Notes: generated by a model from the letters alone, not told the origin. Positions 1 through 58,096 are shown, counted from the stretch's first letter. The stretch is DNA of 64,000 nucleotides from a virus (IMGVR_UViG_3300009151_000001:1-64000), one strand, 5' to 3'. Numbers and translations are program-made.

Positions 1-306
1 AAAGTAAACAAATATCAACAAGGTGGAACAGCTGTTCCTAAAGGAATGGTGAAAGGAGAGATGACAGGTAAACTGTATTCTAAATCTGATATGGATAGTT
101 GGCAAACTAAACAAGCTGCTGCTCTTACTAAACAAGCTGCTGCTTATAAAAAACCTTCTCCATCTCCAATCCCTAGTAAGAAAATGGGTGGAAGTATTGG
201 GAAGACACCTTCTACTCCAGCTGAAAAAAAGTTTGCTGCTTTAGCTCCACCAAAAAATAAAATAACATTTGCTGATAAAGTAACAGGTGCTAAAAAGAAA
301 AAATAA
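1..306 (+). CDS. Small basic Lys-rich virion/internal protein, 5' truncated (frame open from base 1)
   Basis: The frame reads KVNKYQQGGTAVPKG into the ORF-track Met at 46. It contains KYQQGG and KKMGG motifs like those in the cargo proteins at 26903-33202. Confidence 0.7.
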   Translation, partial: KVNKYQQGGTAVPKGMVKGEMTGKLYSKSDMDSWQTKQAAALTKQAAAYKKPSPSPIPSKKMGGSIGKTPSTPAEKKFAALAPPKNKITFADKVTGAKKKK

Positions 307-453: not shown

Positions 454-690
454 ATGTCAGAAGCTTGGCAAAGAAAAGAAGGTAAAAATCCTAGTGGTGG
501 ACTAAATCAAAAAGGAAGAGATTCTTATAATAGAAGTCATCCGGGATCACATCTTAAAGCTCCTCAACCAGAAGGTGGTCCTAGAAAGAAGTCATTTTGT
601 GCTAGGATGTCTGGTGTAAAAGGTCCAATGAAAAAACCTAATGGTGAACCTACTAGAAAAGCTTTAGCTCTCAAAAAATGGAAGTGTTGA
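454..690 (+). CDS. Small basic phage protein, DUF6321-like
   Basis: The AWQRKEGKNPxGGLNxKGRxSY...SFCARM...KWKC pattern is recalled from a widespread phage family. Confidence 0.7.
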   Translation: MSEAWQRKEGKNPSGGLNQKGRDSYNRSHPGSHLKAPQPEGGPRKKSFCARMSGVKGPMKKPNGEPTRKALALKKWKC

Positions 691-20664: not shown

Positions 20665-21339
20665 ATGCCAAAAAGTCTAATAGGTGATGTAGTATCGAGA
20701 ATACGTTCTCAAGTAAAAGCTGTTAAAACAGACAGTCTTCTTACAGACCGTGTTATATACACTTTTGTTTTAAAACACGCTAAGTTCCTTTTAAGACGAG
20801 AAGATTCTAAGAATAAGATAATGTCTATGACATCTGTTATTCAAACTCTTCCTATTGTAGATCTTATAGAGGTAGATAAAATTGAAGCTCAATGTTCTGG
20901 TGTAAGTTCTGATTGTAAAATAAAAAGAACAAAAGATAAGCTTCCTACATTTCTAGAAGGATACTACGGACCTCTTATTAGAACTGTTGCTTCTGTAGAT
21001 GGGTCAGAAGAGTTACAACCAACTCTTCCAAGTTCTTATTTAGCAATGGCTAATAGTAAAAACTTTAGATTTAATAAAACTAAATATTTTTGGTTCTTAA
21101 ATGACTATTTATATTTTCCTAACTTAGAATGGGACGCTGTAAGAATAGAAGGAATATTTGAAGAAGATATAAGTGCTTTTACCTGTGAGCCTGATGGTTG
21201 TATAGATAAAACAGCTCAACCTTTTAATGTACCAGATTATCTTTATAGTGAACTTGAAGCTAATGTTGTAAAAGACTTATTAGGTCTTTATAGTGTACCA
21301 ACTGATTCTACAATAGATAAACAAAATCCTTCTCGATAA
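20665..21339 (+). CDS. Tail ring protein
   Basis: 224 aa. YFWFLNDYLYF...VRIEGIFE(E)D is a crAss ring-protein signature. Confidence 0.65.
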   Translation: MPKSLIGDVVSRIRSQVKAVKTDSLLTDRVIYTFVLKHAKFLLRREDSKNKIMSMTSVIQTLPIVDLIEVDKIEAQCSGVSSDCKIKRTKDKLPTFLEGYYGPLIRTVASVDGSEELQPTLPSSYLAMANSKNFRFNKTKYFWFLNDYLYFPNLEWDAVRIEGIFEEDISAFTCEPDGCIDKTAQPFNVPDYLYSELEANVVKDLLGLYSVPTDSTIDKQNPSR

Positions 21340-22274
21340 TGAATACCGAATTAAGATACAAAACTTTTGATGAGCTACTTAATGAAGTAGCTTCAGATTT
21401 TAGAGCTTATAACAATGAGGGTATGATTGAACCTGGGCAACTTATTAAAGTTGCTCAACGTGTTTCATATGATCTTGGTTTAAAAATTCATGGTACTAAA
21501 GAAAAGCTTATAGAAATAGAATATAGTAAAACAAAACTACCAGATGACTTTTACACTTTAAACTACGCAATGTTATGTAGAAGTTACAGAGTAGAAACTC
21601 CTGTTTTACAGGGAAGACAAACTGAGAATGTTGTTTTAAATAAAAAGAATGTTTATTTAAACGGTGAGCTTTGTAATAAATGTGGATATGAACAACAAGA
21701 ATGTGGTTGTGAATCTACATATAGTGTACAATGTGAAACCGGTGAAAAGATATTTGTACAAGTTGTAGAAAAACGTAAAACAGAAACACGAGTATACGAA
21801 GAATTTGAAAGAGTGTATATATCAGCTGATACTGGTAAACTAGATGCTTTAGATAGAGTTGGTAGTTATGATGAGCACCAATCACAACAAAAGACAGCTT
21901 ATATAAAGAATGGATTTATATATACTAATTTCCCTCAAGGAAAACTGTTTATATCCTATCAGGGGGCCCTGGAAGATGACAATGGAAATCTTCTTGTATT
22001 AGATCATCCTATGATTAATGAGTATTATGAATATGCATTAAAACAACGTATACTAGAAAATTTATATATAGAAGGAGAAGATGTTGTACAGAGATTACAA
22101 CTTATAGAAACCAAACTAAAACAAGCGCGTAACTATGCGTTATCTATAGTAAACACTCCTAACTTCTCTGAGATGTATCAATTATGGCAGATGAATCGTA
22201 AAGCTCAGTATAGTAAATATTACGATATGTTTAAAAACTATCAGGTACAAACATTAGTGTTACCTAAAAAATAA
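21339..22274 (+). CDS. Tail tubular/ring protein (P22 gp4-like Ttub)
   Basis: 311 aa with KLPDDF, YIKNGFIYTNF..G...ISY and DDNGNLLV.D, directly before the muzzle gene. Confidence 0.65.
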   Translation: MNTELRYKTFDELLNEVASDFRAYNNEGMIEPGQLIKVAQRVSYDLGLKIHGTKEKLIEIEYSKTKLPDDFYTLNYAMLCRSYRVETPVLQGRQTENVVLNKKNVYLNGELCNKCGYEQQECGCESTYSVQCETGEKIFVQVVEKRKTETRVYEEFERVYISADTGKLDALDRVGSYDEHQSQQKTAYIKNGFIYTNFPQGKLFISYQGALEDDNGNLLVLDHPMINEYYEYALKQRILENLYIEGEDVVQRLQLIETKLKQARNYALSIVNTPNFSEMYQLWQMNRKAQYSKYYDMFKNYQVQTLVLPKK

Positions 22275-25200: not shown

Positions 25201-26903
25201 AATCAGAAATCACTTATGTAAGAAAAGGATATTTTTATTTATTTAATTCTGGGGTAAGAGACTTTTTTGTAGAGAGCGAGATAAATCTAGGATATAGAGA
25301 TTGGGATGATGATATAGCTAAACGACATTATGACCCGGCCAGATATACAGATCTTGTTTCTCTTTTTAGAAGTGATGTAATTAGAAGTGGTAACTTCTAT
25401 AAATATGATTATAGTCTTAGTATTTCTAAGTTATTTAATAGTTCTATATCGTGGGGTAATATGTTACCAAGAGATTATAATCCTACTACCGCATCTACAT
25501 GTTATGTATATAGACCAAATAGAGTAATATATTCTCTTCCGCAAAATGATCAAAGTAAACAAGATGCTTGGAGATTATTTTTAGCTAATAATTTTAAAGA
25601 TTTTAGAAGTAGAGTAACTTCTATAAAAGCTATAAATAAAACAGGAGCGTTGTTTATGATGAAATATGCATCACCTGTTATGTTTATTGGTACAGAAGAA
25701 CTTAAATTAGATGGTACTAATACAGCTGTTACAATAGGTAATGGAGCTTTATTTGCAAATAATCAAAACTTACAATCTACAGCTAATGCTGAAGATAGTT
25801 ATGAATATGGATCTAATCAAAGTAGATTCTCATCTATAAATACAACTCATGGTGTATTCTGGGTAAGTCAGAATCAAGGTAAAATATTTGTATACGCTCC
25901 TCATAAAGGAGAAAATATGGTGGATATTACAGCTAATGGAATGATGAAGTATTGGTTTGCTAAATATCTTCCTTCACAGCTTTTAAAAGTGTATCCAGGA
26001 TATATTCAAGATGATAACACTATAATTGGAGTTGGTGTACAGATGAGTTATGATGCTACTAATGAAATAATTTATGTATCTAAAAAAGATTACAAACCAT
26101 TAACAGACAAACTAACATATGATGTAAATGGTAATTTTTATAACAATGGACAAAAAGTAGAACTCACTGATACAACTTATTTTGAAGAAGCATCTTGGAC
26201 CGCGTCATTTGATCCTAAATCTAAGATGTGGATATCATTCCATGACTGGATTCCTACATTAACTTTAGCTGGTAGATTACATCTTATGTCTGTAAATAGT
26301 GATTCTATATGGATGCATAATGTAAGATGTGATAGTTATTGTAACTTCTATGGAGTAGATTATCCATTTGATATTGAGTTTGTATCATCTACTGGTCAAC
26401 AAGTTAACTCTGTAAGAAACATTGAGTATCTTCTTGAAGTGTATAAGATGCATAATGATTGTAGAGATAAGTTTCATGTATTAGATACAAACTTTGATTA
26501 CGCCATAGTATATAACTCAGAACAGATTTCGGGAACATTACATCTTAACTTAATGGATAGAAATAATCCATTAACTGTATTAGGGTATCCTAAAATATAT
26601 TCTGATCATATAGATATTAACTTTTCTAAAGTAGAACATAAATATAGATTTAATCAGTTTTGGGATATAACAAAAGACCGTGGTGAGCGTAATTCATCTA
26701 TAGATGTTCCAATGTTTAATACCTCAGCTAATGGATATGAGTATCCAATTAATCCTGAGTATGTAAATTATGATAAAGTTTCTTTAGAACGTAAGAAGTT
26801 TAGACACACTATTAATAAAGTGTTTTTAAGAAAATCTTTATCCGGTAATCAAAAGCTTCTATTTAAAATCTCTAATGTTAAAAATCTTAATTCTCCTAGA
26901 TAA
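22281..26903 (+). CDS. Muzzle / tail stabilization protein (P22 gp10-like Tstab)
   Basis: 1540 aa with NTFSKGM.KD, GNEPSN, IYWDDGLNP.R, GYMRDE.Y.F, FGGDIYINRF and W.SFHDW.P. Confidence 0.8.
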   Translation: MPDQQQPMAPGGVNTFSKGMVKDHNETFLGEGIYTHARNAVNNSHDGQIGVIGNEPSNFKCVQLPYTLIGSVYVSESKWVVFTTDDINSEIGIFDENLCGSELAYQKLVNSSCLNFKRTNPITAIYRKRYDCERIIYWDDGLNPTRSVDIDILDYTSSLPNLPFEYTETNVNGCILKKYTSTLDCEKIRIVPRIQHPCLILTKGVSAGSLPNGSYQVCIAYTVNQVRVTDLIGLSEVQSVFTHENTSSSLKLTISNMDSSFDEFEVVLIAAFNQQTVAKSIGFYSTSQGTILIDRLDNEFVNVPLSEVVLRTEPVEKSDAIYTLNNYVLRLGVYSKYKFNYQLQANDIKANWVVVKYPFDYYSKGGNNTGYMRDEQYSFFIRWVYNTGEFSESYHIPGRKGSIDELSDSSSLDAFESLEGVIIKKWQIENTAVITSSTQSTLSDGGVVIAKGLMGYWESTEKYPGDRPDIWGPLCGQAIRHHKMPDVSISDMLNHFSDDGGSINILGVQFDNIAHPLDQNGDIISSIVGYEILRGSREGNKTIVAKGLLNNMREYPIPGNISNKGLMQNYPYNDLRADSYLTTEEQDGYNGSATPSSSKMSGYRQDIFSFHSPEVSFSNPYLSLSEVKVYQQLNGISTGSFTTPYKHPKFKVLTDADSVIGSIVGVISAAAIFTKGINISGTNDNPIGIDLGPLPPFPTTSSILPTVSSTGAPIVPTPAAIASDLAYIGNLAQWTVEAAERIIFITTFAELQKEKFLSLMMMLIPKGQFAAQYTSHGFYNKSVTNKAGNIRRKVIDVSYVGNGVQQFGVGHQINNLNRSKVVVVKTSKTLPNPTLQDNSRYTMGDINTELNVNNTTNISSYYGALKTSLPSQYGQLESIKQLPISTCIQASNPKKNQVVSSDVMFGGDIYINRFTEKNTMFFFNSWLMGEPDEIEYDYTLYTNVPYPRFWLNSIEQKRSLLMTSSKYRVLDKRESEITYVRKGYFYLFNSGVRDFFVESEINLGYRDWDDDIAKRHYDPARYTDLVSLFRSDVIRSGNFYKYDYSLSISKLFNSSISWGNMLPRDYNPTTASTCYVYRPNRVIYSLPQNDQSKQDAWRLFLANNFKDFRSRVTSIKAINKTGALFMMKYASPVMFIGTEELKLDGTNTAVTIGNGALFANNQNLQSTANAEDSYEYGSNQSRFSSINTTHGVFWVSQNQGKIFVYAPHKGENMVDITANGMMKYWFAKYLPSQLLKVYPGYIQDDNTIIGVGVQMSYDATNEIIYVSKKDYKPLTDKLTYDVNGNFYNNGQKVELTDTTYFEEASWTASFDPKSKMWISFHDWIPTLTLAGRLHLMSVNSDSIWMHNVRCDSYCNFYGVDYPFDIEFVSSTGQQVNSVRNIEYLLEVYKMHNDCRDKFHVLDTNFDYAIVYNSEQISGTLHLNLMDRNNPLTVLGYPKIYSDHIDINFSKVEHKYRFNQFWDITKDRGERNSSIDVPMFNTSANGYEYPINPEYVNYDKVSLERKKFRHTINKVFLRKSLSGNQKLLFKISNVKNLNSPR

Positions 26904-27784
26904 TGAAAAAACTTCTTCCTTTTATCTCTGATTCTTTGGGTCCTAGTTGGTTAGATAAATACCAGGGGGGTGGTAATGTAAAACCATTAATAGGTTACAC
27001 ACCTAATGGTGATATCAAAAATAATATCAAAGTAATTCCTTCAAAAGATACTTCTATAGATGATGTAAATTATGTTAGAAATTATAAACAACCTTACGAA
27101 CCAACACAAGGTGTTAAAGATTTAAAAGCTAAACTAGCCACTTTATCATTAGCTACAACACCCATTAAAGAAACTCCTTTAGGAGAAGGTATAGATTTAC
27201 TTAATACTGTAGGTGACTTTTATACAGGAAGTAGATATTTAATGGATGGACAAACTAAAAAAGGATTTATAGATATAGGTGAAGGTGTATTAAACTTTAT
27301 TCCATTTATAAAAGGAAAAATTCCTACAGGATGGGATGCAGCTCTTACAAAAGGTCCACTTTTACCACAATTAAGTAGATTAGGTAAATCTTATAACAAC
27401 ATATTACATTTTTCACAAAAAGCCGCTGATGTAGATAATATAAAAGATGGATCATGGTTAAATAAATATGCTCAAGGTGGTACATATGGTGATCCTCTTT
27501 CTCCACGTATTATGAATCTACCAGCATCTTATAAAATGAATAGTTATGATAAAGGTGGAAATATAATAACTGATCCTATGGGACAATGGGCCCATCCTGG
27601 TTCTATTACACGTATACCATCTAACAATATAACAATGAAAGGAATAAACTATTCTCTTTTAGGAATCAGTAACACTGGTCATACACAGATGATGCATCCA
27701 GGTAAAGATTATAAGTTTCATGGAAGTAGTGTTACAGAATATCCTATGATGCAGAATGGGGGTTGGTTAGACAACTATAATTAG
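26903..27784 (+). CDS. Virion cargo/internal protein with GG-delimited modules
   Basis: 293 aa with three WL(D/N)(K/N)Y repeats, four xxGG motifs and a DPMGQWAHPG...ITMKG...VTEYPM module. Confidence 0.6.
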   Translation: MKKLLPFISDSLGPSWLDKYQGGGNVKPLIGYTPNGDIKNNIKVIPSKDTSIDDVNYVRNYKQPYEPTQGVKDLKAKLATLSLATTPIKETPLGEGIDLLNTVGDFYTGSRYLMDGQTKKGFIDIGEGVLNFIPFIKGKIPTGWDAALTKGPLLPQLSRLGKSYNNILHFSQKAADVDNIKDGSWLNKYAQGGTYGDPLSPRIMNLPASYKMNSYDKGGNIITDPMGQWAHPGSITRIPSNNITMKGINYSLLGISNTGHTQMMHPGKDYKFHGSSVTEYPMMQNGGWLDNYN

Positions 27785-27815
27785 TTAAACAGATAAATAA
27801 AGATTATATTATATT

Positions 27816-30056
27816 ATGAAAAGTGAATTTTTAAAGATAGCAAATGTAAAGACTCAGAAAGAGTTTTACGATAAATACCCTAATGAAGCTTCTTTTTTTG
27901 CGGCTCATCCTGAAGCTAAACATCTTAAAACTATGGCTAGAGGTGGAAGCGCGTCTGGTAATAAACAACAGCAACAGATTATGCAAATAATCCAAGCTTA
28001 CGCTAAAGCTTCTGGATCTGATCCTAGACAGATTATGCAACAGTTACAACAGATGCAGCCCCAACAACAACAACAAGCTTTACAACAAATGATGCAAAGT
28101 TTACAGGGTCAAGGTCAACAGATGATGGCTCAACAACAAGGACAGCCTCAGATGCAACTGGGTGGTGGTGCTTATATAACACATCCTCAAATGTTTGCTG
28201 ATGGTGGTAGTAACGATATGATTGGTCCTCAACAAGGGGACGTAACATATAGTAAATCATCTAATAGACCAACACCTGTAATAGGTAATCCAATAGTAAA
28301 TGCTAAGAATATAGTAAATCCTCAAAAAAATGTTTCTGTTGTAGACTTTCTTGCAGCTCAAGGGATGAATAAAACAGATTATGCTTCAAGAAAACAATTA
28401 GCTGAAGCTGCAGGTATAATTGGATATAAAGGTACATCTTCTCAAAATCTTCAGTTAATGGATGTTTTAAAAAATCATCCCAATATGCTAAATAGTAATA
28501 TAAAAGATCCTATAAAACATATTGCTAAAAGTATATCTAAAACTTCTATATCAACTCCTATTACATCGGTTTCATCTAATAATTTAAATTTTTTAATAGA
28601 TCCTAATAATATAGAAGATCGTAAAAAGATGATGGGTGTAAATAAACCTAGATCTACAACAAAAGAACCACCTTTTGGTATAGCAGCTGCTAAATCTATG
28701 ACTGATCCTGTTCCTTTTTATAGTAATGAATATTATAACCAAACATTATCTAAACCTATGACACAAGATGATTCCAGATATCTAGAATCTGGAATGATTG
28801 AAGATAAAAATAAAAATGAACTATACGCTATAAAAAACGGTAAAGTTGTTAAAACAATACCTGTGATGACTGGTCTTAATAAAAACGGAAATATAAATGA
28901 TAAAGGTTTAGCATGGTTAGAAGCTCATCCAGAAGAAGCTAAAAAATTTAGAGCTACTCCTGTTGGAAGTTACATATCTAAATCTAATAAAGATATATAT
29001 GGACAACCTGGATTTAATATGTTACCTATTCAAGCTTTTGGTCAACCTGCGCCAAAAGCTGTAGGTCTTGCACAACACGTTGTATATGGAGCTAATGGTA
29101 TAGATCCAGCTGAATATAAAAGAAGGATGAAAATAATGTCTGGACCAGGAGAACAACGAGTTGGTAGTTATGGTTGTACTAATATGAATGGTCAAGATAT
29201 AGATTGTTTAACTGGTCAATTATTTCCTCAAGGTGACACTACAATAGTAACTGATAGTAGAAATCCAAAAGACCAAGATTTTCTAAGAAAAAAATATGGT
29301 ATTAAAAAAATGGGTGGAGAACCTTGTTATGAATGTGGTGGATCTTATGCTGAAGGTGGTTACTATATGGGTAATGATGGACAAAGACATAAATCTACTA
29401 AAGCTAACTGGAGTGGTAACGCTTTTTATGCTGATGGTGGCTCAGCTCCTTTAGAATATCCTCATATGTTTAAGTATCCTCCTACATATGAAATAGGACC
29501 ACACATGGCTTATGGTGGATATTATCAAGATGGTGGTATGCAACAAGATCCATCTCAAGAACAACCACAACAAGGTCAAGGTGTAGATCCTCAACAGATA
29601 ATGCAAGAGATAGCTCAGAAGTTACAACAAGGTGAAGATCCAAATCAGATAGTACAAGAACTTGTACAAGAAGGTGTACCACAAGACCAAGCTCAACAAA
29701 TGGTACAACAAGTTGTTCAACAGATGCAACAACAAGCGCCTCCGGATCAAGGACAAGGTCAGCCCGGTATGAAGTATGGTGGAATACATATTAATCCAGC
29801 TAATAAAGGTAAGTTTAACGCAACTAAAAAAGCTACAGGTAAATCTACAGAAGAATTAACTCATTCTAAAAATCCTATTACTAAGAAGCGCGCTATATTT
29901 GCTCAAAATTCTGCTAAGTGGAAACATGAAACCGGTGGACAATATGGTGGACAGTATATGCAAGATGGTGGTATATCTATAGGACAAACAATGGATGTTA
30001 CTCCAGAACAAGCTCAATACCTAAAACAAATGGGTTATACATTTGAAAAAATATAA
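27816..30056 (+). CDS. Modular cargo protein: Gln-rich helices, DUF3597-like module, L,D-transpeptidase (YkuD)-like domain
   Basis: SRKQLAEAAGI.GYKGT..QN module, plus LYAIKNGKVVKTIPVMTG...TPVGSY...QH...SYGCTN and about 13 GG motifs. Confidence 0.65.
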   Translation: MKSEFLKIANVKTQKEFYDKYPNEASFFAAHPEAKHLKTMARGGSASGNKQQQQIMQIIQAYAKASGSDPRQIMQQLQQMQPQQQQQALQQMMQSLQGQGQQMMAQQQGQPQMQLGGGAYITHPQMFADGGSNDMIGPQQGDVTYSKSSNRPTPVIGNPIVNAKNIVNPQKNVSVVDFLAAQGMNKTDYASRKQLAEAAGIIGYKGTSSQNLQLMDVLKNHPNMLNSNIKDPIKHIAKSISKTSISTPITSVSSNNLNFLIDPNNIEDRKKMMGVNKPRSTTKEPPFGIAAAKSMTDPVPFYSNEYYNQTLSKPMTQDDSRYLESGMIEDKNKNELYAIKNGKVVKTIPVMTGLNKNGNINDKGLAWLEAHPEEAKKFRATPVGSYISKSNKDIYGQPGFNMLPIQAFGQPAPKAVGLAQHVVYGANGIDPAEYKRRMKIMSGPGEQRVGSYGCTNMNGQDIDCLTGQLFPQGDTTIVTDSRNPKDQDFLRKKYGIKKMGGEPCYECGGSYAEGGYYMGNDGQRHKSTKANWSGNAFYADGGSAPLEYPHMFKYPPTYEIGPHMAYGGYYQDGGMQQDPSQEQPQQGQGVDPQQIMQEIAQKLQQGEDPNQIVQELVQEGVPQDQAQQMVQQVVQQMQQQAPPDQGQGQPGMKYGGIHINPANKGKFNATKKATGKSTEELTHSKNPITKKRAIFAQNSAKWKHETGGQYGGQYMQDGGISIGQTMDVTPEQAQYLKQMGYTFEKI

Positions 30057-30061
30057 GAACT

Positions 30062-33000
30062 ATGAAAATAAGAATAACAGGACAGGGTTTAAAGAAAGCT
30101 CAGTTTGGTAATTGGAGACCTCCTCAACAAATTAATCCATCCGATATTAGAAATTCTCAAGAATATAAAGATTCACAAAAAATATCAGATGATATGAATA
30201 TGGCTCCTGACGCTCCTGATGTTTCTAATGATCCTTATTCAGAAAAATCTCGTGAAGAACAATGGAGATCAATGTATCCTAATGCTCCTAAAGAACTAAA
30301 GGGTCCTAGTGGTTCTTATTTAAATCAACCTGAATCAAAAGTAGGATATGTTCCACCCGTACCAAAACAACAAACTTCCAATAATCAAAAAAGTAAAGGA
30401 CTAGGTATGGGTATTTATAATACTTTAGAACTAGGTAATGCTTTTGGAAATCTTATACAACAACCACAAAAACAAAGAGACTGGTATAAAAAGTTTCGCG
30501 ATAGTAATTTAACAGATAATGCATATGCGGTTACACCTGGTAATGAATCAGGTAATAGAGGAGACTATGATATAAATAACGGTATGTTTAGACCTAATGA
30601 GACTGGGTTTAAAAGTAAAGGAATGTACACTAATAACTTTTCTACACCTCAAGCTCAATATGGTTTATCAGTAGAACCAGGTATGGTTGCTCCATCAAGT
30701 TATAGTTCATCAGATCCATTGAGTATGATGAGCGTTAATTATACTCCTGTTGGTACTACTAATTATGGACCTAAACCAGTTAGTTTTAGCGATTTTAAAG
30801 ATGATAAATCTAAAGGTAGTATTAGTGTAAGAAACAACAATCCTGGTAATATGATGTATTCACCATTTACAAAAAAGTTTGGAGCTGAGCCAGGTAGTCC
30901 TAGACCAGATGGAGAACCAGGTAATTACGCTTATTTTCCTGATTTACAACATGGATTACAAGCTCAAAAAGCTTTGTTAACAAATAAAGGATATGCTAAT
31001 CTTGATCTTACACATGCTATAAATAGATGGATAACAGGTGATGTAAATAGACCAGGAGCTTATACAGCTAATACAATAGCGCCATCTTTAGTTCATAAAA
31101 AAGTTGGTGATCTAACTAATGAAGAACTTGATGTAGTTCAAAAAGGTATAGTTAAAAATGAAGATACACATTTATATAAAATTCTTAAACAACAAGGTAT
31201 TTTTGATACCGGAGGTGAAACATCTAATATGAAAATACGTATAACAGCGGGCCCAGACTCTATAGATCATATGGCCTATGGTGGACAAAAAGGATATGGA
31301 TTTGATTTAGGTCAACGTAATACATATTCTAAAATGAATCAAAGTTCTTTTGCTGACGCATCTAACACTATACAAGAAGTTCCTCGTGATGAAGCTAATA
31401 TAGAAGCTGAAAAAGGAGAAACTGTATATGGTGATCTTGATGGTGATGGAATATTAGAACAAAAGATGATTGGGGGTAGACGTCACTCTGAAGGTGGTAC
31501 AGCTCTTAATGTTCCTGAAGGAAGCTTTATATTTTCTGATACTAAAAAGATGAAGATTAAAGATTCTAATATATTAAAATATTTTGGAAAGACATCTGTT
31601 CCAACCGGTGGTATTACTCCAGCTGATATAGCTAAACAATATAACATTACAAAATATAAAGCTATATTACAAGATCCATTATCTGATCCTATTGCTAAGA
31701 AGACCGCTGAGATGATGATCACTAACATGAACGCTAAGTTATCTAAACTAGCTGATGTACAAGAAGGTATGAAAGGATTCCCTCAAGGTCGTCCTAAAGT
31801 AGCTACAGATCAAGAACAAGGATTAGAACAAGCTGCTTATGGTGGATATTTACAAAAGTATCAACTTAAAGGACAAGTAACTGAAGAGTATAGAAAAAGA
31901 CATCCTGAACTTAATGAAGATAGAACGGATAATCCTTTTACTAATATTAATGATGTTACACATCATTGGTCTAAACAAGGATATACTGGTAAACAAGGAG
32001 ATGTACATGATTGGCAAAATTGGATATCTGATCCTACAAAACATAATGAACAATTCAATACTAAGTTTAGTAATTATCTTCATACAGTTCCTCAGACAAA
32101 TCTTGGTCATAAGTTATTTCCTGGTGTAACTAATCCTACAGATGAGCAATTACGTAAAGGTTTTAGAGATGATAAATATGATTTTAGAGCACCTAGTTTT
32201 ATAGCTCCCGGAGAAATAGTACCATCAACTCTTCCAAATCTTGATCAAGGAGAAAGAACAATACCCTTTACACCACTAAAAGATATACCTTGTGTTGGAC
32301 CAGGATGTAATCCATCAAAAGATATACCACATCATGATAAACCTGTTGAAAAACAAAAAAATAGTTATGACACAAATCGTGGTCCTTGGTGGTTACAAGA
32401 TAAGATAAACTTAACTAATGCTACAGCTAACTGGGCTGGTAATAAAAAGTATCTTCCTTATATACCTGATGTATCATTACAACACGCAGCTCCTACATTT
32501 GAAGATTGGAGAGGACAAGCGGGAGCTTTACAATCTGGTTATCAAAATAATGCTAGAGTAAGTGGAATATATGGACCATCTAGCGCTTTAAACTCTAATC
32601 TAAGTTCTTTAGCTGGTCAACAAGCTGAACAATTAGCGGGAGTAATAGGTGGTGTTGGTGCTAAGAATACAGCTACAGCTAATCAGTTTGCTGAATATAA
32701 CACTGGTCTTACTAATTCAGAAGCTGCTCAAAGAGCTCAGAATAGAGCTAAACTTTGGGAAGGTAATGTTATCGCTAATCAACAATATGACAATGCTAAT
32801 AGAGAAGGTAGAACTAACTTTGTTAATGCACTTAACCAAGGATTTACTAATGCAGCTAACACTTATAATGAAAACAGTGTTAATCCTCATTTTGGTGTAG
32901 ATCCTAGTAGTGGTGGTAATATGTATTTTAAAGGAAACAGTGGTAATATCTTTAATCAAAAATATAATAATCAAGGTGGAAATCAAGATTATTTAACAGA

Positions 33001-33202
33001 CTATCATAATGAATATCAAAAAGCTTTAAAAATGTTTAATGATTCACCAAATGATAAAGGTCAAAGAGATCAATTAATTAATCAACATTTAAATAACTGG
33101 TCTAAGATGAATACTGAAAAAGAAAGAGCTACAACAAATGCTTACGGATTACCTAAAGGATATGCTAGATCTAAAAGTGTATATACAGGTAATAATGATT
33201 AA
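30062..33202 (+). CDS. Cargo/ejection protein with RNNNPGN lysozyme-like domain
   Basis: 1046 aa with VRNNNPGN...YAYFPD..HG..A and a crAss-cargo NIEAEKGE...GRRHSEGG...FIFSD module. Confidence 0.65.
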   Translation: MKIRITGQGLKKAQFGNWRPPQQINPSDIRNSQEYKDSQKISDDMNMAPDAPDVSNDPYSEKSREEQWRSMYPNAPKELKGPSGSYLNQPESKVGYVPPVPKQQTSNNQKSKGLGMGIYNTLELGNAFGNLIQQPQKQRDWYKKFRDSNLTDNAYAVTPGNESGNRGDYDINNGMFRPNETGFKSKGMYTNNFSTPQAQYGLSVEPGMVAPSSYSSSDPLSMMSVNYTPVGTTNYGPKPVSFSDFKDDKSKGSISVRNNNPGNMMYSPFTKKFGAEPGSPRPDGEPGNYAYFPDLQHGLQAQKALLTNKGYANLDLTHAINRWITGDVNRPGAYTANTIAPSLVHKKVGDLTNEELDVVQKGIVKNEDTHLYKILKQQGIFDTGGETSNMKIRITAGPDSIDHMAYGGQKGYGFDLGQRNTYSKMNQSSFADASNTIQEVPRDEANIEAEKGETVYGDLDGDGILEQKMIGGRRHSEGGTALNVPEGSFIFSDTKKMKIKDSNILKYFGKTSVPTGGITPADIAKQYNITKYKAILQDPLSDPIAKKTAEMMITNMNAKLSKLADVQEGMKGFPQGRPKVATDQEQGLEQAAYGGYLQKYQLKGQVTEEYRKRHPELNEDRTDNPFTNINDVTHHWSKQGYTGKQGDVHDWQNWISDPTKHNEQFNTKFSNYLHTVPQTNLGHKLFPGVTNPTDEQLRKGFRDDKYDFRAPSFIAPGEIVPSTLPNLDQGERTIPFTPLKDIPCVGPGCNPSKDIPHHDKPVEKQKNSYDTNRGPWWLQDKINLTNATANWAGNKKYLPYIPDVSLQHAAPTFEDWRGQAGALQSGYQNNARVSGIYGPSSALNSNLSSLAGQQAEQLAGVIGGVGAKNTATANQFAEYNTGLTNSEAAQRAQNRAKLWEGNVIANQQYDNANREGRTNFVNALNQGFTNAANTYNENSVNPHFGVDPSSGGNMYFKGNSGNIFNQKYNNQGGNQDYLTDYHNEYQKALKMFNDSPNDKGQRDQLINQHLNNWSKMNTEKERATTNAYGLPKGYARSKSVYTGNND

Positions 33203-39300: not shown

Positions 39301-42300
39301 AAACGAAAATTTAATAATATACGCTAAAGCTGCTGCAGCAGCTATATCTGTTGTTAATGACAGAATACATCAAGAACATTTAACAGCGGTTAATAATACA
39401 ATAAACGCTGGTGAAGAAACTGAAACAGAAGAAGATGTTAAAACTATAGGTGATTACACTATAAAACAAAATCAAGATAAATCATTTAGTGTATTTGATT
39501 CTGAAGAAAAAGAAATAGCTAAAGACTTAGCTACACATGATGACGCGGAAGAACTTATTAATAGTATTGTTAAAGAAGCTAATAAACAACCACCAGAACA
39601 AAAACAAACTTCTACACAAGAGAAAACATTAGAAGAACAAAAAGCTGATATAAAAAGAAGACAACAAGAAGAATTAAATCAAACTCAAAAATTTACTATA
39701 AATAGGGCTAATAAAGATTTAGAATTAGCCCCTGAAATAGAACTTTCTGAGATTGATTTAGAAAAATCAGGTTTGGGGGATCTTCAAAAAGCAGAAGTAA
39801 AAAGAGTAAGAGTTTTAGAATACAGAGGTATAAATTCAGAAGGTAAAAGAGTTGGAACAGTTATAATACAAACTAATGATTCTATAGAAACTTTTGAAGT
39901 ATTTTTTAATGATGTTAAAATTAATTCTAAATATGAAGCTATATTAGCTAAATTAGAAAAACAAGAAAAACCTAAAAAACCAGAAGAACCAAAGGGTATT
40001 ATATATCTAGATCCAGAAAGTAATGAGTTTAAACAAGAATATAATAACGCTTTAGATAAACTAGCTAGTGTTGTAAATCAACCTAATGCTACACCATCTG
40101 CTATAAAAGCTGCGTTTGATGATTTGTTTAATAACACTCTTATTAATCTTGATCCTTCTTTAGCTGCTAGAGCAGCATATAAAGAAAAACTTAAAGAAGA
40201 GATGGATACTTTAATATCTGAAGCTAATCGTAAGATTAAAGCTAATAATGTAACCGGAGCCAAACAATCTATCTCAAACTCATTTAAAAACGAAGAGTCT
40301 TCTACATTAAATGATATAGCTAATGATTCAGAAAATATATTAGACGAACTTAATCCTGAACATAAAGAAGAAGTTATACAACACTTTGAAACAAACTTTT
40401 TACAAAGTATTGGTAAAAGAATATCTAATCTTTTATCTAAAGCTAGTGAACTAGCTGGTGGTGAGTTATTATCATTCTTTAAAAAAAGCGCTAATGAAGC
40501 AAAAGAAAGAGTAACTAAAAATCTTGATAAATATAAAGAAGAATCAAATAAGATCAAAGAATCTATTAATAAAAGTGGTATAAGAATTAGTAAGATTAAT
40601 ATTAATGAATTTTTTGATAATCCTGTTAATATGAGTATACAGGATGATGAAAAAAACAGAGATAAATCAGCAACACCTGGACAATTAATAGCTATTGACA
40701 ACTTAATAAATTCTGGTATATTAGAATCTAATGAAACAAACAAATCTCTTCAAGGAGCTAGTTATTATATTAACCAAGGTGTAGGAAGAATATACACAAT
40801 AGAAATTAATAAACTTGTAAATAGTTATTTTAAATTAAAAAATAGTAAAACAAGTAATACTACAGAAGTAAATAATGCGTTAACTAGTTTAAAAGCGTCT
40901 GTTAAATCATATCTTGAAAGTTTTTCTACTGATCCTAAAGAAGATGTTCAAGCTGCTTTTGACGCTATTGAAAAAGCTAATGATCCTGATGAATTATTAG
41001 GTATATACGATAATGAGGGAAACTCTAAACCATTACAAGTAGAAAAATCTAATCAAAAAGATTTATCAGATGAAGAGTATAAATTATTAAAAGAGTTTAG
41101 AACTTCTTTATATAATATGCAGTTTCAAGGTAACTTGATGAATGTTCATAATAATATAGAACAAGCTGAACAAAACGCTTTATCTAATAGTGAAAGATTA
41201 AGACCAGAAGACTTAGTAACATCTGATCTTATAAATTCTATTCCAAATTCTTTATTTAAAGACTCTAATACCAAAAATAGTTTAAAAAATTCTATCATTT
41301 CTTTATTAGATTCTATAAAAGATCTTAATGATAAAAAAGAAATCAGTTCATTAATAAATAAACTATCAATAAAAGAGTTTAAATCTGGAGTAAAAATAGA
41401 AGGTGAAGGTATAATTAAAAGTATATACGCAACTTATTTAAATACTCAAACAAGTATAAATGAGGAAGAACAAGTTGGTCCAGTGTTATCTAAAGAGGAA
41501 ATGTTAACAGCTTTAGAAAATAGTAAAACAACAATTCTTAATAAAGCTCAAATAAATCAAGTAGATGAGTTTGCTAAAACAGAACTATTAAACGCTTATA
41601 AAGCTAAACTTAACGCTGCTATTGGATATTCTACTAAAGATTCTACATATACTCCTGAAAAACTAGGTTTAAATGAAGAACCAGGTGAAACATTTTCAAC
41701 GTTAAGACAAAAGTTTGCTGGTGATATAAGAACAGCTGAGGATCTTAAAAAAGATCTTAATGCTCAGGGTGATCAAGTATCTACTAAGAATGCTTTAAAC
41801 TTTATTGTAAATAGTGATTTTGCTACAGATGCTGAGAAAGAATTAGCTAGAAGTCTAATGAACGCTATCTCTGAAGATAGCTTTATAACATTAGCTAATA
41901 ATTCTGATTTTAAAACACCCACAGCTGGTGATTTTGATCCTAACACTAATAGAATCAGAATCAATATGAACGCTGTAGAACATAAAGATGGATACACTTC
42001 TTCTCCTATAGAGACAGTTATATTACATGAGCTTATACATCAGTTAACTGAAACAGCTTTATCTGACCCTAATAGTGAATTTTATAAAGGAATATCATCT
42101 TTGATGGCTGTTGTTAAAAAACAAAAAGGAGCTGATACATTTTACGCGTTCCAATCTAAACTATCTAATGATGAACAACGTCATGAGTTTGTAGCGGAAG
42201 CTTTAACTAACCCTGCGTTTCAACATTTATTAGCTAGTACACAATATGCTAACAGTAAAACTAGTGTATGGGATAAACTATTGGATATTATTAATAGGGT

Positions 42301-44542
42301 GTTACAAGCTGTCGGTATTGATGTAAGAGCTACAGCTCTTTCAGAAGTATTAAACTTAACTGGTGATTTATTAAATCCAGTGGATCCGGGTAGTTTTGTA
42401 GAAGCACAAAGTATAACAAGAAGTATAACTGAAGCTAAAACATTAGATGAGTTAAAAGCTATCAGAGAAGACTTATTTAATAATAAAGATATAACTAAAA
42501 TAAGTGAAGCTACTTTTAATTCTATGATTAATCTCATCTCTGGTAAAGAGAAGAGTATAAATCAAATGAAGATAAGAGATCAATATGAAAAGACTCATAC
42601 AGCAATAAAAATAAATAATAAAATCTACCATTATAAGTTAAATGATAATGGTAGATTATCTATTGTGTCTTTATCATCTACTGGTGTTAATAATGTCAGA
42701 AGTCAGAAAGTAATTGATAGTATTATTAATAATATTCTATCTAAAAAAGATGGTGTTAAAACACTACTTTCTAAAAATACTATTAACGATATAACACAAG
42801 AACTAAATAATTTAAAAGATAAAAATAAAATAAATAATTTATTAAAACAAAGCCTTGGTGTAAAGATATCTGATGATATACAAACTAAAATAGAAAATAA
42901 GTTGTTTTCTCAAGATATTCCTGTAGACCAAGGTCTACCAGAAACAGAAGTGATTGAGAATGATGTTCCTGCTGGTGGAACAACTACCACTGGTTCTAAA
43001 TCTATAACAGAAGCTGAAATAAATAAAAGTACAGCACAAAATCTAAAAGGACTAAGATCTTTTAATAGTGATGGGTATATAGATAGAAATACAGGTGACT
43101 TTATAGAAAACCCATCTTTTACAAAGTATTATAGTAAAATAAGAAGTATTATAAACGCTTTGTCTATAAAAGATTTAAGTGAGCTCAAAGACTATCATGT
43201 TACAATAGATAAAGATAACGAACATATTCGTTGGGATGATTCTTTTGAAGATCCAGGAGTTAAAAATAATCTAGGAATAGTTGGTTTTATTTCTGATGAA
43301 AAAGGAAATCCTATTGTATTTAATCCAAAAGGTGAGAAAGTAGGTGTAACAGATAGAAACAATCTATCTGACTATAAAGGATTACGAAATGGTGAAAATC
43401 AAATAGTATATATATATACTATAAATGAGAATAAGAATAAAAATAAAGATAATATAAATCCTGAAGAAATAAAACTAATTAAAGCTGCTAAAGAAGAAGC
43501 TTTAAAAGGTAATCCTCAGATATCTAGGTTAACTAAGATTAATCAAGGTAGAGCTAATACAAAGTCTAACATTAATAAAACTAGTTCTCAACTTAAACAT
43601 ACAAATGAAAAAGACTTTGTAGATAAACTTAGTCAAGATAATGTTACATTCTCACTTGATTTAACACCATCCGATAAAGAAGCTGGTAAAACTGGGGGAA
43701 GCTTATTAGTTCACATTAATGATTCAAATGGATCTGTTCATACAGAAGCTTTACAAGCTCCTAAAGTGGGTCAAGTAAGTATATCAACAAAAGATGGTAC
43801 GTTTTCTTTATTTGAATATGCTATTGATCTTATGAAAACTTATAGAGGTATGAGTGAACACATGACTAAAGATGAATTATCATATACACAATCTAATTTG
43901 AAATATTTTTTACAACATGTGTTCTTTTCTAAAAAAATAAACATGGGTGGTGAGTTTAAAGTGATAGAATTAATTACTCCTGAGAATAAACAAAAAGGAA
44001 TAACAAAAAGTGTAGATTCATATTTTATGTTTAAAAAAGATAAAAACGGTAACTATCAAACTATAGATGAAACTAGTGAAGCTTATAAGAAAGTTAAAAA
44101 ATGGATTAATGACTCAAAGTTAAACGTAGATAAAGAATGGTTACAAGGTAGACCATTTATGTTTCCTATAGTTAAAACAGATGAGAATGGTAAAAAAATG
44201 ATTACCTTTGTAGAGAAGGATTATGTTAACTTCTTATTGAAAGAAGTTGGTTTTACTACATATATGAATGATGTACCAACAGTTGATAATGTTAAGTTTT
44301 ATAATTCTATAGTTGAGTTTGGTAAACCTGAAAATCTAAATAGTACTGTACAACCTACTAAGTTAACAGAACAAAATATTGTTAATAATCCTAATGCTGT
44401 AGAAAACGAAATAAAAGATACTATACAAAAAATTGATGCATCTGATATTGATTTAGATAGTCTTCCTAATTTAGGAAATGAAGAAAACTTTAGACTTGTT
44501 CCTGCAAATAACAAAAAAATATTCAATATAAACTGTAAATAA
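36347..44542 (+). CDS. Giant ejected virion protein with zincin-like metallopeptidase domain
   Basis: 2731 aa with ILHELIH (42026-42040) and downstream HEFVAEALTNP.FQ. It has Gly/Ala-rich hydrophobic N-terminal helices and an EG.E..QE motif. Confidence 0.75.
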   Translation: MPDTLNILPTPDTSAADLQLSEQRYNDMENRNIESQRNDISSMFHTDTPVSLVNGQTINDLINQIDAIQAKTKNLANNININLNTPKQQPVFDISKAASQILGSLNNNPETTFNKQKQLVSLGSGEDLDRYKQSDYYNVFGYNPYIGKEQEFRYGEAMTIGDVLKKAGGGAMNLALQTGWEGVKGTGRILDSLISLDLSKLHGSPEELYQMAEDQQKIFDKYAIYDTAESAQGGLFNRQFFGNMLQQAGFAIGAGAEMWLEGVITGGIADFFLAPEYGLLASKMVGRLGETDEAIRVAAGLTERTSTIDKANKTFNKIGKMFTADEAINDMRKMSQQVTEASGISKKIGEFGKSLVPLYGTAENLIKLNKAGAGGLQLAVEGIGGIHRALSEINMARSESIFESASTYKQLHDKLVKDYIDANGQAPQGAELERIKKLSENASSDNFWVNMGVLSVMNRMQFSNMFKTFDGSRSIFSEGVHSLEDQAFEVTGKIAGKTEKRAFVKSPYFGKLAAIGEIAQEFGGKTAAWEATKTVGGRMFKMEGLEGLQEMIQNASDKGLEDYYYDLYHSQKGYGTTYLGNVMSKYDKIQNGFVDQIPFIGKDGVEGLKTFVMGAYTGALLSPMYKIIGITNQRFQDRKQLKNDPTYKTAQQRAKESVDLVNAFYTGDKTAFKKEWIASVKVQNKAAETMEEAAKNHDKYVFYNAKDSAFNKMVEASIKLNMFDSVRDHIKEMGAALKDDEEFKQAYGMEATKQNRGNVKAFMDKVANDLEDYHSLRTQLIDKYADLVMPELYRNNGKEVYENMKIAQSAVFDAIDILTFNIQKSRQSVLRAESIRKDLASIKSIGASSNNILIKAGNPTSIKDSINILQDEIKGMTIPNTTLSGEQRTLLSKKQEELNLLRKWENVHYDVMTGEYDSYTPDILKKEAYGVFKDLTNFYNKQNKNLSTISTQDSENAFIGVLDHMKLNRDEKSYIDAVNLLADPRNENLIIYAKAAAAAISVVNDRIHQEHLTAVNNTINAGEETETEEDVKTIGDYTIKQNQDKSFSVFDSEEKEIAKDLATHDDAEELINSIVKEANKQPPEQKQTSTQEKTLEEQKADIKRRQQEELNQTQKFTINRANKDLELAPEIELSEIDLEKSGLGDLQKAEVKRVRVLEYRGINSEGKRVGTVIIQTNDSIETFEVFFNDVKINSKYEAILAKLEKQEKPKKPEEPKGIIYLDPESNEFKQEYNNALDKLASVVNQPNATPSAIKAAFDDLFNNTLINLDPSLAARAAYKEKLKEEMDTLISEANRKIKANNVTGAKQSISNSFKNEESSTLNDIANDSENILDELNPEHKEEVIQHFETNFLQSIGKRISNLLSKASELAGGELLSFFKKSANEAKERVTKNLDKYKEESNKIKESINKSGIRISKININEFFDNPVNMSIQDDEKNRDKSATPGQLIAIDNLINSGILESNETNKSLQGASYYINQGVGRIYTIEINKLVNSYFKLKNSKTSNTTEVNNALTSLKASVKSYLESFSTDPKEDVQAAFDAIEKANDPDELLGIYDNEGNSKPLQVEKSNQKDLSDEEYKLLKEFRTSLYNMQFQGNLMNVHNNIEQAEQNALSNSERLRPEDLVTSDLINSIPNSLFKDSNTKNSLKNSIISLLDSIKDLNDKKEISSLINKLSIKEFKSGVKIEGEGIIKSIYATYLNTQTSINEEEQVGPVLSKEEMLTALENSKTTILNKAQINQVDEFAKTELLNAYKAKLNAAIGYSTKDSTYTPEKLGLNEEPGETFSTLRQKFAGDIRTAEDLKKDLNAQGDQVSTKNALNFIVNSDFATDAEKELARSLMNAISEDSFITLANNSDFKTPTAGDFDPNTNRIRINMNAVEHKDGYTSSPIETVILHELIHQLTETALSDPNSEFYKGISSLMAVVKKQKGADTFYAFQSKLSNDEQRHEFVAEALTNPAFQHLLASTQYANSKTSVWDKLLDIINRVLQAVGIDVRATALSEVLNLTGDLLNPVDPGSFVEAQSITRSITEAKTLDELKAIREDLFNNKDITKISEATFNSMINLISGKEKSINQMKIRDQYEKTHTAIKINNKIYHYKLNDNGRLSIVSLSSTGVNNVRSQKVIDSIINNILSKKDGVKTLLSKNTINDITQELNNLKDKNKINNLLKQSLGVKISDDIQTKIENKLFSQDIPVDQGLPETEVIENDVPAGGTTTTGSKSITEAEINKSTAQNLKGLRSFNSDGYIDRNTGDFIENPSFTKYYSKIRSIINALSIKDLSELKDYHVTIDKDNEHIRWDDSFEDPGVKNNLGIVGFISDEKGNPIVFNPKGEKVGVTDRNNLSDYKGLRNGENQIVYIYTINENKNKNKDNINPEEIKLIKAAKEEALKGNPQISRLTKINQGRANTKSNINKTSSQLKHTNEKDFVDKLSQDNVTFSLDLTPSDKEAGKTGGSLLVHINDSNGSVHTEALQAPKVGQVSISTKDGTFSLFEYAIDLMKTYRGMSEHMTKDELSYTQSNLKYFLQHVFFSKKINMGGEFKVIELITPENKQKGITKSVDSYFMFKKDKNGNYQTIDETSEAYKKVKKWINDSKLNVDKEWLQGRPFMFPIVKTDENGKKMITFVEKDYVNFLLKEVGFTTYMNDVPTVDNVKFYNSIVEFGKPENLNSTVQPTKLTEQNIVNNPNAVENEIKDTIQKIDASDIDLDSLPNLGNEENFRLVPANNKKIFNINCK

Positions 44543-58070: not shown

Positions 58071-58096
58071 AAAAGGAGATCTACTGATCTCCTTTT
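58071..58096. terminator. Bidirectional terminator at the convergence of the late and replication modules
   Basis: AAAAGGAGATC/TACT/GATCTCCTTTT gives a U-tail in both orientations. The TAG stop of the minus-strand ORF lies inside the hairpin. Confidence 0.75.

Follow-up and report, generated by a model that had tools for sequence, protein, structure and literature searches.

Conserved Gly-Gly peptides at the module seams and ends of predicted cargo proteins in a crAss-like phage

The locus and its cargo genes

The 64,000-nucleotide stretch of viral DNA analysed here, IMGVR_UViG_3300009151_000001:1-64000 (hereafter the window), covers the virion half of a genome of 124,635 bp that has a terminal repeat and whose ends overlap. 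It belongs to a crAss-like phage and encodes, in this order, tail ring proteins 2 and 1, a muzzle protein, three open reading frames (ORFs) tentatively referred to as ORFs A, B, and C, a 1027-residue ORF, and three giant ORFs that include the virion RNA polymerase (RNAP), with DFDxD in one of them (Table 1). In crAss001, the genes that follow the muzzle gene code for cargo proteins, which are kept within the capsid and the tail and then ejected (Bayfield et al., 2023, PMC10172136). ORFs A-C directly follow the ring and muzzle genes and precede the virion RNAP block, which is where C1/gp45-type cargo genes are placed in Crassvirales, and their products are probably carried in the particle and injected. 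ORFs A-C consist of swappable modules joined and capped by a short conserved Gly-Gly peptide, which is the subject of this analysis.

A position-specific Gly-Gly motif

A sequence-only reading of the window had named hydrophobic-x-x-Gly-Gly motifs in four ORFs, and all of them are present in the translations: YQGGG, YAQGG, YDKGG, and MQNGG in ORF A (from 26903), 13 Gly-Gly sites in ORF B (from 27816), FDTGG, MAYGG, and AAYGG with the variants AQFG and AQYG in ORF C (from 30062), and YQQGG and KKMGG in the ORF at 1-306 (ORF 1-306). Counts of [FYM]xxGG were compared with 2000 shuffles per protein for the 33 ORFs of the window. ORF B has 10 copies vs. 0.94 expected, a count reached in 0 of the 2000 shuffles, and ORF A has 4 vs. 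0.42 (p 0.0005). ORF 1-306 has 1 vs. 0.06 (p 0.06), and ORF C alone is not significantly enriched (2 vs. 0.92, p 0.24). When ORFs A, B, and C are pooled, 16 copies are found vs. 2.6 expected, which was reached in 0 of 1000 shuffles. As the earlier reading stated, the motif does not recur likewise in the neighbouring muzzle or RNAP genes: the muzzle is not significantly enriched (2 vs. 0.81), and the three giant ORFs have 0 copies each (0.55-0.75 expected for each). None of the remaining window ORFs has p <0.15. Across the 141 ORFs of the whole genome, ORFs A and B stand out, and besides them only a 66-residue ORF immediately behind the capsid gene (2 vs. 0.08).

The suggested enrichment over a composition-matched background thus holds for ORFs A and B within the genome, and it extends to related phages. 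All 64 ORF B homologues have 3-12 copies each (0.5-2.1 expected), the 119 listed ORF A homologues have 323 copies (69.7 expected), and the best 150 of 2545 ORF C relatives have 516 (157 expected). We further recruited 73 viral loci with the muzzle protein, 64 of which have ORFs downstream of it (within 7 kb). The 155 downstream ORFs of these 64 loci contain 709 copies vs. about 150-154 expected, and in 58 of the 64 loci an enrichment is seen behind the muzzle gene. There is none in the upstream ORFs of the related loci, which contain 114 copies vs. 97.5 expected (1.2x), or in their muzzle proteins, with 125 vs. 90.6 (1.4x). Between orthologues at 39-51% identity, the motif positions are kept, and the x positions and the choice among Tyr, Phe, and Met drift.

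One related locus (L011; PP438436, 77593-87838) comes from Leptolyngbya phage Lbo-JY46, a cultured 125-kb cyanophage with the same gene order, for which a literature search found no paper. There, a 1654-residue gene precedes genes that carry the beta module of ORF A, the C-terminal module of ORF B, and the start of ORF C.

The motif is specific in both residue and register, as judged by observed/shuffled ratios in the 155 post-muzzle ORFs. Aromatic residues or Met are enriched 4.6x three positions before Gly-Gly (position -3), with 2.6x at -1, 2.3x at -4, and 1.0x at -2. The ratio is 0.81x for Leu, Ile, or Val at -3, 0.65x for Asp or Glu at -3, only 1.7x for the reversed motif, and 0.93-0.96x when SS, AA, or NN replaces GG. 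In the window, [LIV]xxGG is likewise rarer than expected (1 vs. 3.0). Of the hydrophobic residue originally described at -3, therefore, the aromatic and Met part stands, and Leu, Ile, and Val have to be removed, being depleted in the window and in relatives. A total of 1331 distinct Gly-Gly contexts gave [YMF]-[QAK]-x-G-G-x-hydrophobic as the consensus, with position -2 preferring Q, A, K, and E. Longer variants are WL[DN]KY-xx-GG, EYPxM..GG, and HMAYGG. In 50 of 57 cases, a GG comes no more than four residues after EYPxM; this variant closes the beta module of ORF A and also stands after the portal-binding domain of crAss001 gp45. Tandem copies are spaced by just 3-8 residues.

Two other explanations of the consensus were rejected. 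A helix C-cap is not general, as a predicted helix precedes just 5 of 17 sites. The first Gly codon is GGT in 80% of the motifs and in 70% of other Gly-Gly pairs, which amounts to no difference; with Gly codon use this ordinary, a DNA-level signal does not appear to maintain the motifs. No description of the motif was found in the literature on Crassvirales, nor any relevant paper on the WLDKY tag described below. As these comparisons indicate, the peptides are conserved, position-specific short linear motifs at the module seams and protein ends of putative virion cargo proteins, and not a by-product of composition.

Modules, seams, and cassette swaps

An AlphaFold2 model of ORF B, built from a 42-row alignment, shows seven confident modules separated by segments with a predicted local distance difference test (pLDDT) score <50. 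These segments make up 36% of the residues and overlap 11 of the 13 Gly-Gly sites, the other two adjoining module edges. The model thus agrees with the earlier placement of the motifs at module boundaries, although Gly-rich sequence is itself prone to low pLDDT, and the overlap is therefore not fully independent evidence. Not every linker carries the motif, as the long Ser/Thr/Pro linker of ORF B (residues 231-316) has none. The modules include several unrelated effector-type domains (peptidoglycan-binding-like, YkuD-like, and five other folded modules) that are swapped in relatives. The L,D-transpeptidase (YkuD) call is based on a sub-threshold match (E 0.002), on PF03734 matches of many homologues, and on the folded domain at residues 317-498. 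The two Gln-rich modules (window 27963-28115 and 29580-29735) are paralogous, as ORF B 593-656 matches residues 53-117 of a relative (P0005) at 49% identity.

The basic helical module of ORF B is shared with crAss001 gp45 (ORF B 628-719 vs. gp45 346-435, 40% identity, BLASTP E 2e-9) and was found by tblastn in 22 phage records, at identities given as 53-82% and as 60-90% for most. In six gut Suoliviridae it is a stand-alone gene of 70-77 residues with a conserved leader, YPxYPIPxYKxGG. In four gut Suoliviridae loci (L085, L088, L089, and L090), these stand-alone genes have an in-frame TAG in the place of a Gln of relatives (FA*N vs. FAQN), which would fit the stop-codon recoding reported for some crassviruses.

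ORF A has a single confidently folded small beta module (residues 221-283) and three WL[DN][KN]Y tags, each beside Gly-Gly, at residues 16-24, 185-193, and 283-293. The beta module has at least 222 homologues. Foldseek gave no PDB match at E<=0.001, and the best VIA-align wide Z was 4.9, to generic beta sandwiches; accordingly, the module has no recognisable protease or known fold. Among the 119 listed ORF A homologues, the tag stands at the C-terminal end in 101 (..GG-WLxKY-x), with GG before it in 90. At the other end, 51 homologues start with M-x-WLxKY, 39 of which then have GG within three residues, and internal tags of the family have GG directly before them in 48 of 52 cases. Such conservation of WLxKY both before and after Gly-Gly is not predicted by a one-sided protease recognition site. 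The idea that the YkuD-like domain covalently anchors Lys-ending tags was dropped, as the last residue of ORF A is Asn, and Lys is the last residue in only 57 of the 119 homologues. A complex prediction of ring protein 1, ring protein 2, and ORF A scored 0.00, which counts neither for nor against binding.

ORF C has a second MKIRIT start at residue 390 (residues 390-396, window 31229-31250), right after FDTGG-ETSN. Many relatives begin there, and for this reason ORF C resembles two genes fused at a seam. A putative CARG1-like domain follows at about residues 430-600 and is closed by AAYGG-YLQKYQ. A profile of 100 ORF C relatives matches gp45 466-543 with an hhalign probability of 91.5% (E 8.8e-7). 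ORF C is not a plain gp45 homologue (BLASTP E 0.76; phmmer vs. PDB, nothing), the relationship emerging in the profile comparison only, and Pfam crAss_CARG1 (PF25725) has no match in ORFs A-C (hmmscan E<=10) or in the whole genome. The lysozyme module previously assigned to ORF C would be tentative at best, Pfam giving no match and the ESM Atlas only sub-threshold leads. Within the CARG1-like domain, 100 of 100 ORF C relatives have RH[ST]xGG unchanged, which indicates that some Gly-Gly pairs belong to the fold and not to seams.

The closest known counterpart of these proteins is crAss001 gp45 (Bayfield et al., 2023, PMC10172136; PDB 7qog and others). Like the cargo genes here, its gene stands directly after the muzzle gene and its product is partly disordered; it shares the basic helical module with ORF B, and the profile comparison suggests a CARG1-like domain in ORF C. 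It also has the same kind of seams (FDTGG, SAYGG, FAEGGG, KAFGG, NAFGG, and FAYGG), and its two segments resolved by cryo-electron microscopy, residues 214-245 in the tail and 425-552 in the capsid, are bracketed by SAYGG/FAEGGG and NAFGG/FAYGG, respectively. In contrast, the cargo in our phage is spread over three genes with YkuD-like, peptidoglycan-binding-like, and beta modules. The motif density is also far higher here, as gp45 has 3 copies of [FYM]xxGG vs. 1.24 expected, which is not significant, and the available text on crAss001 does not mention the motif.

The seams also mark the places at which near-identical phages have exchanged entire cassettes. Locus L001 has 98% DNA identity to the window over the longest matched stretch (rings, muzzle, and most of ORF A) and differs by cassette swaps. 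In its ORF A, a 991-nucleotide insert lies exactly between MQNGG and WLDNYN, flanked by a 14-nucleotide near-repeat encoding M-Q/K-N-G-G, and the two blastn segments between the window and L001 overlap at window 27749-27762. In ORF B, residues 119-510 (the peptidoglycan-binding-like and YkuD-like modules) are replaced in L001 by an unrelated segment of ~130 residues; identity ends at MQ[LM]GGG and restarts at Y[AS]EGG. One break in ORF C immediately follows AAYGG-YLQKYQ, and three others are away from Gly-Gly. In this comparison, 5 of 8 cassette ends thus fall on a motif.

Among relatives more generally, the modules occur in many orders and as stand-alone genes. When ORF B homologues were aligned globally in pairs, 20 of 76 indel ends came within 4 residues of GG vs. 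11.6 expected, an excess that is weak because the alignments are ambiguous in low-complexity parts. BLAST segment ends lie near a motif at a rate of 0.42 vs. 0.28 under the null for ORF B (reached by 38 of 1000 null placements) and 0.89 vs. 0.22 for ORF A, the latter being driven by one module.

Table 1. Positions of the genes, modules, and seams discussed in the text (residues are those of the ORF named).
Feature	Window position	Strand	Residues	Remarks
ORF 1-306, 3' part of small basic ORF	1..306	+		internal KKMGG; starts MATKKVNKYQQGG at other genome end
Tail ring protein 2	20665..21339	+		Pfam CrAss_Ring_2, E 4e-20
Tail ring protein 1	21339..22274	+		Pfam CrAss_Ring_1, E 1.7e-11
Muzzle-like virion protein, 1540 residues	22281..26903	+		phrog_37948, E 2.3e-63; position after ring genes, as in crAss001
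ORF A, 293 residues	26903..27784	+		three WL[DN][KN]Y tags flanked by Gly-Gly; one small beta module
ORF A C-terminal seam and tag MQNGG-WLDNYN	27749..27781	+		991-nucleotide cassette indel site vs. locus L001
ORF B, 746 residues	27816..30056	+		7 predicted folded modules, 13 Gly-Gly sites between
ORF B start domain			1-43	
ORF B Gln-rich helices			50-100 and 589-640	
ORF B peptidoglycan-binding-like module			173-230	phrog_2307, E 2.3e-12
ORF B YkuD-like domain			317-498	
ORF B densest motif cluster	29301..29540	+	496-575	KKMGG, YECGG, YAEGG, YADGG, MAYGG, YQDGG; mostly low pLDDT
ORF B basic helical module			662-700	
ORF B basic helical module (IHINP..KGKF...KWKH)	29784..29933	+		between MKYGG and HETGG; shared with crAss001 gp45
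ORF B C-terminal module			720-746	
ORF C, 1046 residues	30062..33202	+		divergent C1-like cargo protein, fusion-like
Zincin-like metallopeptidase-type region in 2731-residue ORF 36347-44542	41915..42256	+		HELIH at residues 1894-1898; candidate protease
Virion RNA polymerase homologue	44542..51315	+		DFDxD at residue 1480; 0 motif copies

Elsewhere in the genome, the full ORF of ORF 1-306 is basic, has ~105 residues, and starts with MATKKVNKYQQGG at genome ~124,500-124,635; together with the 66-residue ORF after the capsid gene, which ends in MKKGGMVKMKKGGKCC, it represents tiny basic proteins with the motif. A stand-alone 78-residue DUF6321 gene (E 1.8e-25) lies at window 454-690; DUF6321 is the C-terminal module in eight PHROG families, and our literature search found no paper on it. 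The large terminase (1089 residues; genome 113294-116563, outside the window) has LAGLIDADG and Hint matches and thus probably contains an intein. A homing-endonuclease-like gene of the HNH/NUMOD type on the minus strand (window 58081-59199) carries an N-terminal cREC_REC (cyclic-phosphate processing receiver) domain.

Possible roles of the seam peptides

The sequence-only reading had offered two functions for the motifs, maturation-protease sites or docking motifs. Conserved linear motifs at seams are indeed found, and adenovirus- or African swine fever virus (ASFV)-type cutting is not supported. The reading we tentatively prefer, at somewhat less than even confidence, is that the peptides would remain uncut and serve as "sticker plus hinge" handles. 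The aromatic, amphipathic part would make weak multivalent contacts, the candidate partners being other cargo, the wall of the tail barrel, portal, or capsid, or the start domain of the next protein. The Gly-Gly pair would insulate adjacent modules and allow the chain to be kept in an extended form and to pass, partly unfolded, through portal and tail. As the joints are all alike and tolerant of insertions, they may also be preferred recombination points, so that the set of cargo modules could be exchanged quickly.

We prefer an uncut handle because WLxKY occurs on either side of Gly-Gly, because seams occur in tandem, and because the stand-alone modules keep a conserved leader; motifs only 3-8 residues apart fit multivalent binding better than product release. 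In crAss001, NTQGG and INEGG lie within the portal-bound domain as modelled (residues 425-552), and short helices of cargo are seen attached to the walls of barrel and muzzle (Bayfield et al., 2023). An analogy may also be drawn with known capsid-targeting peptides, as follows. The capsid targeting sequence of T4 internal proteins and the cargo-loading peptides of encapsulins are likewise short terminal peptides on unrelated proteins inside an HK97-fold shell, and the WLxKY end tags are similar. The tags described here differ in being also internal, in tandem, and at both protein ends, and any role in loading is putative.

Several observations weigh against such handles. No binding partner or contact of the seam peptides was identified, and the AlphaFold models have low confidence precisely at the motifs, so that a motif structure cannot be read there. 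In Lbo-JY46, the four genes named above have only 0, 0, 2, and 0 motif copies, and the motif is thus not essential to the architecture. The YPxYPIPxYKxGG leader, ending in Gly-Gly, also resembles a propeptide, and a candidate zincin-like domain that may be packaged in the virion is encoded in ORF 36347-44542. The two Gly-Gly sites in the portal-bound domain of crAss001 lack the aromatic residue and have little bearing on canonical sites. Finally, crAss001 C1 is present in both capsid and tail (Bayfield et al., 2023), which a cut would explain more simply than twelve chains threading the portal.

Cleavage is the most serious rival, although we consider it less likely than an uncut handle. The seams would be cut in the capsid or after ejection by the zincin-like domain of ORF 36347-44542, or by a host or unrecognised phage protease, and this would free many small enzymes, basic proteins, and tags. 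A Gly-Gly pair with a fixed bulky residue upstream, in exposed linkers, is what such a code would look like. At protein ends, Gly-Gly sets off leaders and trailers of 6-17 residues; these, and the bracketing of each resolved gp45 segment by seam motifs, are consistent with it. In some gut crassviruses, the stand-alone module gene also adjoins a gene annotated as peptidase or zincin protease.

As for the enzyme, no clan-CE or any other peptidase family was found at E<=1e-3 in the Pfam search of 143 ORFs or in the PHROGs scans, in which a very divergent enzyme could escape. The sole HExxH among the called ORFs is at residue 1894 of ORF 36347-44542 and thus not in ORFs A-C. Four zincin families of Pfam match this region (SprT-like 0.0055, BSP 0.033, M91 0.034, and WLM 0.043), all below cut-offs. 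Neither the two His nor the Glu of its core vary in 29 of 29 homologues, the surrounding ETV..LHE is conserved to 90% or more, and the downstream EFV.EA with its Glu is conserved as well. The search for a protease elsewhere in the genome that the earlier reading called for therefore had a mixed outcome, yielding no clan-CE enzyme but a zincin-like candidate, whose connection to the motif would be hypothetical.

This candidate has precedents. Orthologues of phi14:2 gp65 carry a zincin-like protease domain, occur in virions, and are encoded next to the RNA polymerase, and the preprint describes fused crAss-like polyproteins as "likely cleaved" (Drobysheva et al., bioRxiv 10.1101/2020.03.07.982082). 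Like gp65, ORF 36347-44542 would be a giant virion protein beside the RNA polymerase with a conserved HExxH region; this likeness is one of domain and position. Zincin-like MPTase domains have been proposed to process polyvalent proteins (Iyer et al., 2017, PMC5512222). These are likewise virion-delivered strings of unrelated exchangeable domains, and here too a putative zincin-like domain lies in the same gene block. However, that text describes no conserved junction peptide for them ("linker" occurs 0 times), and the zincin-like domain of our phage is on a separate polypeptide from the motif-rich proteins.

Several points argue against cutting. No cut was observed; "protease", "proteoly-", and "cleav-" are absent from Bayfield et al. 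(2023, PMC10172136), and the first two from a 2023 review (in which "cleav-" was not searched). WLxKY is conserved whether it precedes or follows Gly-Gly, tandem sites would yield peptides of 3-8 residues, and the junction of a fused 4615-residue zincin-RNAP protein (P0365) has no motif-like site. No recognised peptidase family, of clan CE or otherwise, reaches threshold in the genome.

The analogy with adenovirus and ASFV is not supported. The adenovirus protease and ASFV pS273R are Gly-Gly-specific viral maturation proteases of clan CE, and the adenain consensus has Met, Leu, or Ile two residues before Gly-Gly (P4). The systems share Gly-Gly with an upstream bulky residue in proteins packed in the virion, but the residue here is aromatic or Met instead of Met, Leu, or Ile, and stands one position further upstream, three before Gly-Gly. 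At two before, the ratio is 1.0x, and Leu, Ile, and Val are depleted; the adenain-type consensus is therefore not matched.

A more specific proposal, that the aromatic-x-x-Gly-Gly seams are the cutting code of a zincin-like protease packed beside the RNA polymerase and that the cargo proteins are true polyproteins, seems to us unlikely. If true, the cargo would be diced in the particle or just after ejection into at least a dozen enzymes, small basic proteins, and address tags, as a bacteriophage counterpart of adenovirus and ASFV core maturation, and this would explain the presence of crAss001 C1 in both capsid and tail.

Less plausible still is that the seams are passive joints, in which Gly-Gly after a helix-favouring run provides a structural stop and flexible linker with no partner and no protease, and the recurrence of the motif results from cassette exchange at short homologies, each cassette carrying its own linker. 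Such exchange would fit the cassette ends that fall on motifs in L001, including the 14-nucleotide near-repeat flanking the 991-nucleotide insert, and the many module orders and stand-alone genes; a passive role would also fit the preference for Q, A, K, and E at -2 and the fact that Lbo-JY46 manages without most motifs. However, a plain linker needs neither Tyr, Phe, or Met at -3 with Leu, Ile, and Val depleted, nor a conserved WLxKY or YPxYPIP extension, and this residue specificity makes a purely passive joint less likely. The long Ser/Thr/Pro linkers of ORF B (231-316) are motif-free, the ordinary Gly codons give no DNA-level signal, and at 39-51% identity it is the motif positions that are kept and the x positions that vary. 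Chance in Gly- and Tyr-rich low-complexity sequence, to which the Gly content of ORFs A-C (9.4-11.6%) and the non-significance of ORF C alone might point, is refuted by the shuffles (0 of 1000 reach the window count), by the dependence on orientation and register, and by the recurrence in 58 of 64 related loci, and is almost certainly wrong.

Crassviruses are the most abundant human gut phages and have relatives that are common in water. The crAss001 structure left the question of how several megadaltons of cargo protein are loaded, stored, and ejected by these phages. We know of no polyprotein maturation system of a seam-cutting kind from tailed phages, and if the joints were cut, this would be the first such case known to us. 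Cut or uncut, a conserved junction and end peptide predicts the sites of neo-termini, the residues to mutate, and the peptides to try as packaging tags or protease substrates. Uniform joints would also explain, through cassette swaps, the fast exchange of injected modules among these phages.

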